64,000 nt of DNA, taken from Eledone cirrhosa (lineage: Eukaryota). The stretch is from the NCBI GenBank assembly GCA_964016885.1, contig OZ024742.1:335916001-335980000 (forward strand), written 5' to 3'. The stretch's first letter is position 1. Every line of letters starts with the position of its first letter. This document shows, piece after piece, positions 59,209 to 59,744 of this stretch. The notes beneath the pieces are model-generated. The model ran no database searches. It saw only the letters and a program-made list of their open reading frames with translations, and was not told the DNA's origin. The position numbers and the translations under genes were made by a program.

Positions 59209-59213
<5 letters not shown>

Positions 59214-59744
59214 AAGGTATATATTGAGTTAGGAACTCAAAATAGTCTCTTACAATAGAATAGCTCTAAGAAAGAGATTTTTCCGAGCCATATATTATAA
59301 TAGAATATAAAAGAAAGACGAACACAGACATATACATATATGTGTTCAAATCGCAAGGGACCAGATTCGCTAAGGTGAAAAGAATACTAACTATAGACAA
59401 TAGGGTTTGCCAGACTGAATTTAAATAGATCAAGTAAATAAATACAAACCGGAATTGTGGTAACTACCAATCACCCAGACAGCTTGGTGCTGTTTCGCAA
59501 TACTAATTAACTGTGAATAGAAATACCAATTATTGCTCATCAGTGGGTGAGAAATTAGTATCCTAGACATTTCTTAGTATATTACGACACTGAATAATGT
59601 GCGTATATATAACAACACACATGGTATCTTAGCGTGTCTCACAAACTTACACCACTAAAAATAGCAGCCAGGTTTATTCGACATTTGAATTAGCTCAACA
59701 AATTAACGGAGCCGAATATATCAAAGGTATATATTGAGTTAGGA
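59209..59744 (-). mobile_element. Retrozyme-like 510-bp non-coding unit with a short terminal direct repeat
   Basis: TCAAAGGTATATATTGAGTTAGGA at 59211 and 59721; central HHR; (TA)n flanks. Confidence 0.75.
59471..59550 (-). ncRNA. Canonical type I hammerhead ribozyme
   Basis: UCACCCA-CUGAUGA-GCAAUA...UAUUGC-GAAACAGC-accaa-GCUGUC^UGGGUGA. Confidence 0.92.

Follow-up and report, generated by a model that had tools for sequence, protein, structure and literature searches.

Animal non-LTR retrozymes are short, non-coding, low-GC repeats with a canonical type I hammerhead; they are predicted to form self-paired circles, lack LTR features and co-occur with Penelope-like elements (PMC7229834, PMC7761336, bioRxiv 10.64898/2026.07.22.740005), on which they are thought to depend. 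The 510-nt repeat described here, found in a 64,000-nt window (the whole stretch of DNA analyzed) of Eledone cirrhosa, shares each of these features, with a GC content of 33.7% against the limit of 45% used for retrozymes and a length covered by the 51-972 bp reported by Li et al. (bioRxiv 10.64898/2026.07.22.740005). Published animal retrozymes are described as tandem arrays, with units of ~170-400 nt in invertebrates, although solo copies are known, as here. The E. cirrhosa locus differs in being a dispersed unit plus overlap within a (TA)n microsatellite, and the family differs from the published descriptions in having permuted copies and a defined 3' end. Circles and cleavage have been shown for published animal retrozymes, whereas in the 510-nt family both are putative. 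The locus lies outside the "active" class of Li et al., which has at least two tandem units, each with a hammerhead, and fits their "monomer derivative". We consider that the repeat works like an animal non-LTR retrozyme, its strict membership being provisional. A cDNA of more than unit length made from a retrozyme circle is already part of the published model (PMC7761336), and the 2020 review that presents it states that animal retrozymes lack a conserved motif pointing to a partner (PMC7761336).

Other hammerhead repeats are more distant. Cricket pDo500 and newt satellite 2 (newt: PMC7229834) share with the 510-nt unit the type I hammerhead and a unit of a few hundred nt, but they are long tandem satellites, and the accounts available note no TA-targeted solo copies of them. 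Plant-type LTR retrozymes carry type III hammerheads in LTRs of ~350 bp (PMC7761336); the type I motif and the 29-nt repeat without a ribozyme rule out this class for the 510-nt unit.

Among Penelope-like elements, Naiad (Craig et al. 2021, PMC8557442) shares with the 510-nt family the (TA)n target, 5' truncation, partial tandems and inversions, and two octopus consensuses end in TTTGATAT like the 510-nt unit. Naiads are, in contrast, coding elements of 3.4-4.4 kb without canonical hammerheads, and the shared stretch is ~8-9 nt. Hydra elements (PMC8557442), of which two copies lie in the window, also target (TA)n and have a sense hammerhead near the 3' end; they are coding, and the distance from hammerhead to 3' end is a few tens of nt in the consensuses examined, versus 266 nt here. 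In vitro, Poseidon of Anolis (Frangieh et al. 2024, PMC11167929) starts reverse transcription internally, downstream of the hammerhead, after nicking AT-rich DNA, much as proposed below, and its two start sites recall the two 3' ends of the 510-nt family. Its start site lacks target homology, whereas the AUAUAU of the 510-nt unit matches (TA)n; its ribozyme needs protein, whereas stem III of the 510-nt hammerhead appears stable.

A unit-plus-overlap copy between two TA runs

Simple repeats, LINE fragments and Penelope-like elements abound in the window, which is animal DNA; no tRNA genes were found in it. The locus consists of the following features.

59212-59721, minus strand (sense = minus): 510-nt non-coding unit, 33.7% GC, 62% paired as a predicted circle
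59206-59234, minus strand: 3' copy of the 29-nt repeat, ending in TATACCTTTG|ATATAT flush with the TA run; putative start of reverse transcription
59716-59744, minus strand: 5' copy of the 29-nt repeat, overlap into a second round
59168-59211, no strand: (TA)22 run at the 3' end, putative target and primer
59745-59791, no strand: an extra G followed by (TA)23 at the 5' end, the TA run itself being 59746-59791
59471-59550, minus strand: type I hammerhead motif, based on motif anatomy and Markov simulation, with predicted self-cleavage

The repeat at the two ends is exact, with a spacing of 510 (BLAST E 2.5e-9). Its first 6 nt are ATATAT, the same as the microsatellite, which leaves a unique part of 23 nt. 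The original prediction had described ~25 bp at the start of the unit recurring 510 bp on, in a non-coding segment with (TA)n on both sides and with a start away from the cleavage site. All of this was borne out: the repeat extends over 29 nt, both TA runs are present, the longest stop-free stretch of the circularized unit is 65 aa in sense and 52 aa in antisense, and the 3' end lies 266 nt downstream of the predicted cut. An ORF with RT and GIY-YIG domains was sought in the unit and none was found, which rules out an autonomous Penelope-like element. The locus holds 1.05 units and one hammerhead, the 29-nt repeat being without ribozyme, and a unit plus overlap between two TA runs is the observed product. 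In the full unit, 59224-59240 form a 7-bp hairpin, and the 5' copy of the repeat stops one base beyond the loop of this hairpin. When circularized, the unit has a predicted minimum free energy of -118.6 kcal/mol (z -3.8 versus 60 dinucleotide shuffles).

Short hairpin-forming repeats, 75-86% identical between copies, lie beside TA runs at 59870-60029, 28764-28952, 42416-42662 and 52068-52143; a ribozyme motif scan of this family found none.

The hammerhead of the 510-nt unit

On the minus strand, stem I pairs 59550-59544 with 59477-59471 (7 bp), and the CUGAUGA box occupies 59543-59537. The base of stem II pairs 59536-59531 with 59502-59497 (6 bp) and encloses ~28 nt, GAAA lies at 59496-59493, and stem III has 5 bp, including A15.1-U16.1, with a loop of 5 nt. 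The GUC at 59480-59478 sets the cleavage site between 59478 and 59477. Every stem, box and the cut site could be re-read as first proposed. The numbering of hammerheads and the C3-G8 covariation rule are established. The latter rule is also given in PMC11167929.

No equally good motif occurred in 60 simulated order-3 Markov sequences of 64 kb, both strands included. Rfam gave 0 hits in the whole window at gathering thresholds and, for 59100-59900 with E up to 10, 32 matches with no hammerhead family among them. The label "textbook" therefore rests on the motif and not on a covariance model; the missing score is probably due to the long stem II. At 59532 most of the family has another base, with which stem II would be reduced to the 4 bp of canonical hammerheads (stem sizes in PMC4209133).

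The original prediction read the stable stem III as suggesting activity as a monomer, which would agree with published rules (PMC4209133, PMC7761336). Fold prediction, in a model that leaves out tertiary contacts, speaks against activity: the active fold came out 2.1 kcal/mol less stable than the local minimum, with a competitor fold that buries the core. The active fold made up 2% of the local ensemble and 0.6% in the whole unit, and pairing in the predicted circle was 0.8-0.9 for stem III, ~0.3 for stem I and ~0.13 for stem II. Since Li et al. (2026, bioRxiv 10.64898/2026.07.22.740005) report cleavage in 1 of 9 dimers assayed, a hammerhead motif is no guarantee of activity.

A circularly permuted relative 6 kb away

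A search for circularly permuted copies, recommended as a check of the original prediction, recovered junction-crossing contigs (see below) and one diverged relative in the window.

53043-53603, minus strand: diverged permuted relative, ~one unit long, with an internal junction near 53515 and a 3' end flush with (TA)n at 52981-53042

It lies 6 kb from the 510-nt unit, is identical to it at 331 of 476 aligned positions (~70%), and matches a doubled unit across the junction with an nhmmer E of 2.2e-10. The best alignment was obtained with the unit rotated to about 59301-59316, scoring 222.6 versus 131.8 unrotated and a maximum of 113.5 in 200 shuffles. Four segments all lie in the rotated order, their scores being reached by 0, 4, 0 and 0 of 300 shuffles, and the distance from junction to core is ~172 nt in the relative versus 173 nt in the unit. 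The relative has its own hammerhead (core 53343, cut 53228), whose stem I differs in sequence and still forms 9 bp; compared with the unit, stem III is far longer and the weak stem II has decayed to ~2 bp. The end motif has been lost from its end, which lies ~80-90 nt from the main end and close to a second end near 59290 seen in one sequencing run (X2). Terminal redundancy was not found in the relative (score reached by 102 of 300 shuffles). Its length is approximate, the 5' edge being fuzzy and adjoining a degenerate minimal hammerhead of another family.

That minimal-hammerhead family occupies 51097-51945, 52760-52900 and 53660-53740, with cores at 51203 (minus), 51839 (plus) and 52881 (minus) and a degenerate one near 53735 (minus). 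Its first element (51097-51945) is built as a 390-nt inverted repeat with (TA)n at its end.

The family in sequencing runs

Of the ten runs listed, X1, X2, X5 and X8 were placed on 59206-59745, with the TA flanks outside this 540-nt stretch; X3, X4, X6, X7, X9 and X10 were left out. X1 and X2 come from the same sample, of unrecorded type, X8 is a RAD run and X5 comes from a second organism. The stretch was matched by 3,399 of 17.1 million contigs in X1, 3,315 of 16.5 million contigs in X2, 2,907 of 12.5 million RAD reads in X8 and 4 of 18.7 million contigs in X5, at 80-100% identity to the 510-nt unit (mostly 90-99%). The unit is a member of a high-copy repeat family that extends beyond this single locus. 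Summed contig depth is no measure of copy number, and RAD depth tracks restriction sites; the pile-up of RAD ends at 59421 coincides with a TTAA site. At 18 of the 40 substitution rows listed (of 211) the window copy departs from at least 80% of X1 depth, so it appears to be aged or from a minor subfamily, outside the majority type.

The contigs of these runs each span less than one unit, and neither a full dimer nor a master locus was observed among them. Six of the 12 rows listed (of 13) in the table of junction joints go from 59727-59744 to 59214-59298, three in X1 and three in X2. One X5 contig covers 59639-59741, continues through the sequence of ~59232-59253 and then inverts, so that the length of the overlap varies. 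Inversions account for 11 of the 15 joints listed (of 40), and seven X2 contigs have a TA run before 59290, a second TA-flush end. Coverage of the family peaks in the 29-nt repeat, which reads on into the unit in thousands of records. At 59233 an alternative base is found in 80% of X1 depth and in 570/612 and 176/208 reads of X8; both repeat copies of the window locus carry the minority base (7-20% of depth), consistent with a single template molecule. Contig depth is greater at the 3' end, summing in X1 to 27,000-242,000 in the 3' half versus 1,900-30,000 in the 5' half. A depth step at the cut site would be expected if linear cut monomers were common templates. Across the ribozyme contig depth drops ~6-fold, while RAD depth is flat (~106 versus 90-136), and the loops of the window copy diverge there. 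Coding sequence was recognized in none of the 24 loose ends listed (of 578), and a metagenome scan with a 30-nt end pattern gave 0 matches.

Judged from sequence comparison, several observations count in favour of selection on the ribozyme. The stem III pair 59482/59490 varies on both sides at similar rates (5901/11028 versus 1381/2411 of X1 depth), which would be a change from G-C to A-U if the two are in phase. The core and the 7-bp stem I are free of substitutions among the 40 substitution rows listed (of 211), and stem I of the permuted relative pairs despite its different sequence. In the second organism, an X5 loose end behind 59482 has AAAA in place of the GAAA required by the hammerhead; the ribozyme of that copy is likely dead.

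Penelope-like elements in the window

Two Hydra-type elements were found.

45420-49037, minus strand: near-complete Hydra-type Penelope-like element with two pseudo-LTRs, flush with (TA)n; candidate partner clade
38258-42290, plus strand: second Hydra-type Penelope-like element, frame-broken, with an inverted 3' piece flush with (TA)n; right boundary set by eye

Both frames were placed by the published RWK, DKT and CxCX5C motifs; Pfam gave no family for them. One is closest by eye to Hydra-1_Obim among the published sequences compared, and a protein search with a Hydra-type frame returned 2,387 relatives, with informative names in none of the 120 listed. The pseudo-LTRs of the near-complete element measure ~350 nt, show 14 differences over 359 compared positions, some of them beyond the end of the repeat, and each hold TATATATTTGATATAT ~60 nt inside the end. 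Its reading frame has one in-frame stop, between 47932 and 47931; an inverted piece lies flush with (TA)n at 49081, and another end of the same family abuts (TA)n at 19337. The second element has a long AT-rich 3' region, with a degenerate hammerhead-like stretch near 42190-42280 recognized by eye. Comparison of the 510-nt unit with the two coding elements gave no clear match: the scores were reached by 226 and 2 of 300 shuffles, the latter comparison being a gappy AT-rich alignment.

Other repeats of the window include endonuclease-RT LINE copies with long first frames ahead (762-4083, 11547-15008 and 24948-27846) and a 271-nt inverted repeat (34419-34689 and 35144-35414, 98% complementary, 454 nt apart). 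The C-terminal part of a non-LTR element, followed by (CATA)n, lies at 57124-58680; it has no Pfam hit, and its end is presumably a restriction-like endonuclease domain.

A 587-nt family with the same end motif

A second hammerhead family is present in the window.

32427-34222, plus strand: 587-nt family, ~2.7 identical tandem units and an inverted 187-nt piece

The inverted piece has a TTTG|ATAT end flush with (TA)n. The units show 0 differences in 587 and 429 nt, and are recent because they are identical. Their hammerhead has the compensated core UUGAUAA (a U3-A8 variant) and a palindromic stem III; the end motif lies as a UUU-closed hairpin within the stem II loop and precedes the cut site by 40 nt, and the predicted circular fold has a z of -5.4.

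The original prediction saw no evident similarity between the 510-nt unit and this family. This does not hold at the 3' end, where both share AATATATCAAAG[G/A]TATA (16/17 nt) flush with a TA run (59206 and 32427). Homology of the two bodies was not accepted, the best local score of 46 being reached by 5 of 300 shuffles in one of five comparisons. TATA.CTTTGATATATT, a motif defined after being seen, occurred 0 times in 100 Markov windows. The 10-mer TTTGATATAT occurs 8 times in the window versus 3.25 expected by chance, all 8 in three elements: two in the 510-nt unit, four in the 587-nt insertion and two in the pseudo-LTRs of one Hydra copy. Of all TA junctions, 3/152 end in TTTG, where ~1 is expected.

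In the supplement of PMC8557442 (584,131 characters), TTTGATAT has 14 matches, two of them at the very end of a consensus, namely Naiad_Obim and Naiad_Ovul; these are near-identical relatives and count once, and the match, compared by eye, is short (~8-9 nt). The third octopus Naiad there, Naiad_Omin, has a different end, and 0/5 of the Hydra consensus ends examined finish in TTTGATAT. Four short Naiad 3' motifs were sought in the window, where one matched at 45044 and three had no match. The 14 nt at 45044-45057 are identical to the end of the Naiad_Ovul consensus and have no adjoining TA run, which may be chance or a remnant.

Origin of the 510-nt copy

The 510-nt unit is part of a periodic non-coding template. 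The family bears the marks of Penelope-like insertion, namely a (TA)n target, a partial tandem, inversions and 5' truncation, and partial tandems, inversions and a (TA)n bias have been described for Penelope-like elements (PMC8557442). We infer insertion by target-primed reverse transcription with a Penelope-like protein, and we lean towards reading the locus as a solo unit-plus-overlap copy of a likely circular RNA, copied slightly over one round by a Penelope-like reverse transcriptase. The original prediction, of one round plus a short overlap of reverse transcription on a 510-nt circular RNA, is partly supported. Transcripts of a master locus with two or more hammerheads would be cleaved to 510-nt monomers and circularized by a host ligase. 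A (TA)n-targeting Penelope-like protein would nick a microsatellite, and the nicked DNA would prime on AUAUAU at UUUG|AUAUAU, 266 nt downstream of the cut site. Synthesis would then traverse the hammerhead, finish the round and stop 23 nt into the second. Ligated or uncut RNA is needed, because a cut linear monomer gives at most 266 nt from the start site. With one hammerhead, the window copy could not release a monomer and is likely a dead-end product, not a source.

The same element and enzyme could instead have copied a linear, uncut tandem transcript, the overlap marking 5' truncation within the next unit; this rival is strong, although we hold it to be less likely than the circle. It would leave a DNA footprint equal to that of a circle, partial tandems are the usual Penelope-like structure (PMC8557442), and the main substrate of the one Penelope-like enzyme tested in vitro was uncut RNA, with the ribozyme dispensable and an internal start (PMC11167929). 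The hammerhead fold above the predicted minimum and the multimeric 587-nt insertion also fit an uncut template. Random truncation, on the other hand, would rarely give window copies of 1.05 and ~1.0 units, although the former copy was selected for this very length and the latter lacks a sharp 5' edge. Furthermore, a stable stem III should lead to the cutting of tandem transcripts (PMC4209133, PMC7761336), and circles predominate in coral, mussel and axolotl (PMC7229834). We favour the circle over tandem RNA for these reasons: near-unit lengths in the window, the stable stem III and the abundant circles of tested animals. One round is no fixed rule, given the ~2.7 units of the 587-nt insertion.

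A coding Penelope-like element with the 510-nt unit as its pseudo-LTR or 3' UTR, of which the window locus would be a truncated copy, is improbable. The greater depth of the 3' half could be caused by a coding relative that shares it, and Xenopus retrozymes are described as resembling pseudo-LTRs (bioRxiv 10.64898/2026.07.22.740005). The 3' end nevertheless recurs 510 nt upstream without an ORF, at the locus, in the relative and in the contigs of two organisms, and neither the two coding elements of the window nor the 24 loose ends listed (of 578) supply a clear match or recognizable coding sequence.

A more remote scenario, which we regard as very improbable, has two insertions (a new unit landing in an old 23-nt stub of the family) or the DNA-level collapse of a tandem array. 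Nicking by the enzyme at its own pseudo-LTR junction is on record (PMC11167929), and insertion at TA runs is repeated in the window; yet both ends are identical down to the minority base at 59233, no TA run separates stub and unit, and other copies have the same junction. That the 29 nt are a target-site duplication, as an exact direct repeat at both ends might suggest, is scarcely credible, since coverage of the family is highest over the repeat and thousands of records continue from it into the unit. The repeat also reappears at the junction of further copies, whose flanks differ, and in the permuted relative.

As for the enzyme, the end motif, as a sequence match, points to Naiad first and Hydra second. 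Caution is called for in either assignment, as the bare 10-mer is common and the Hydra pseudo-LTR has the motif, though not at its end. A further caution on Naiad is that its cephalopod copies are called long-inactive remnants in PMC8557442, while the 587-nt units are recent. We propose, as a speculation that we ourselves doubt, that the unrelated 510- and 587-nt hammerhead circles converged on the 3' terminus UUUG|AUAUAU of the ribozyme-less Naiad and use it for internal entry; the Naiad enzyme would prime from nicked (TA)n, go round the circle and leave permuted unit-plus-overlap copies.

Implications for animal retrozymes

A hammerhead repeat is by itself ordinary, and the kind (animal non-LTR retrozyme), the solo copies, the size range, the Penelope link and more-than-unit cDNA are already published. 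The literature search, which did not extend to subscription papers, Repbase or two supplements that may hold such cases (PMC7229834, 2026 preprint), found no octopus retrozyme, no permuted unit-plus-overlap copies and no retrozyme priming motif. What would be new is a candidate priming site and a candidate partner for an animal retrozyme. A shared motif stands precisely at the TA-flush end of two families, permuted copies record the start and stop of synthesis, and the end motif likely hints at the identity of the enzyme. A defined RNA, a start site, a DNA target and two candidate enzymes provide the basis for an in vitro test, and counts of ends in an assembled genome offer a way to tell a circular from a tandem template. 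If Naiad is indeed the partner, an animal retrozyme would have a named priming site and a named enzyme, and ribozyme circles would parasitize a Penelope clade that itself lacks hammerheads.
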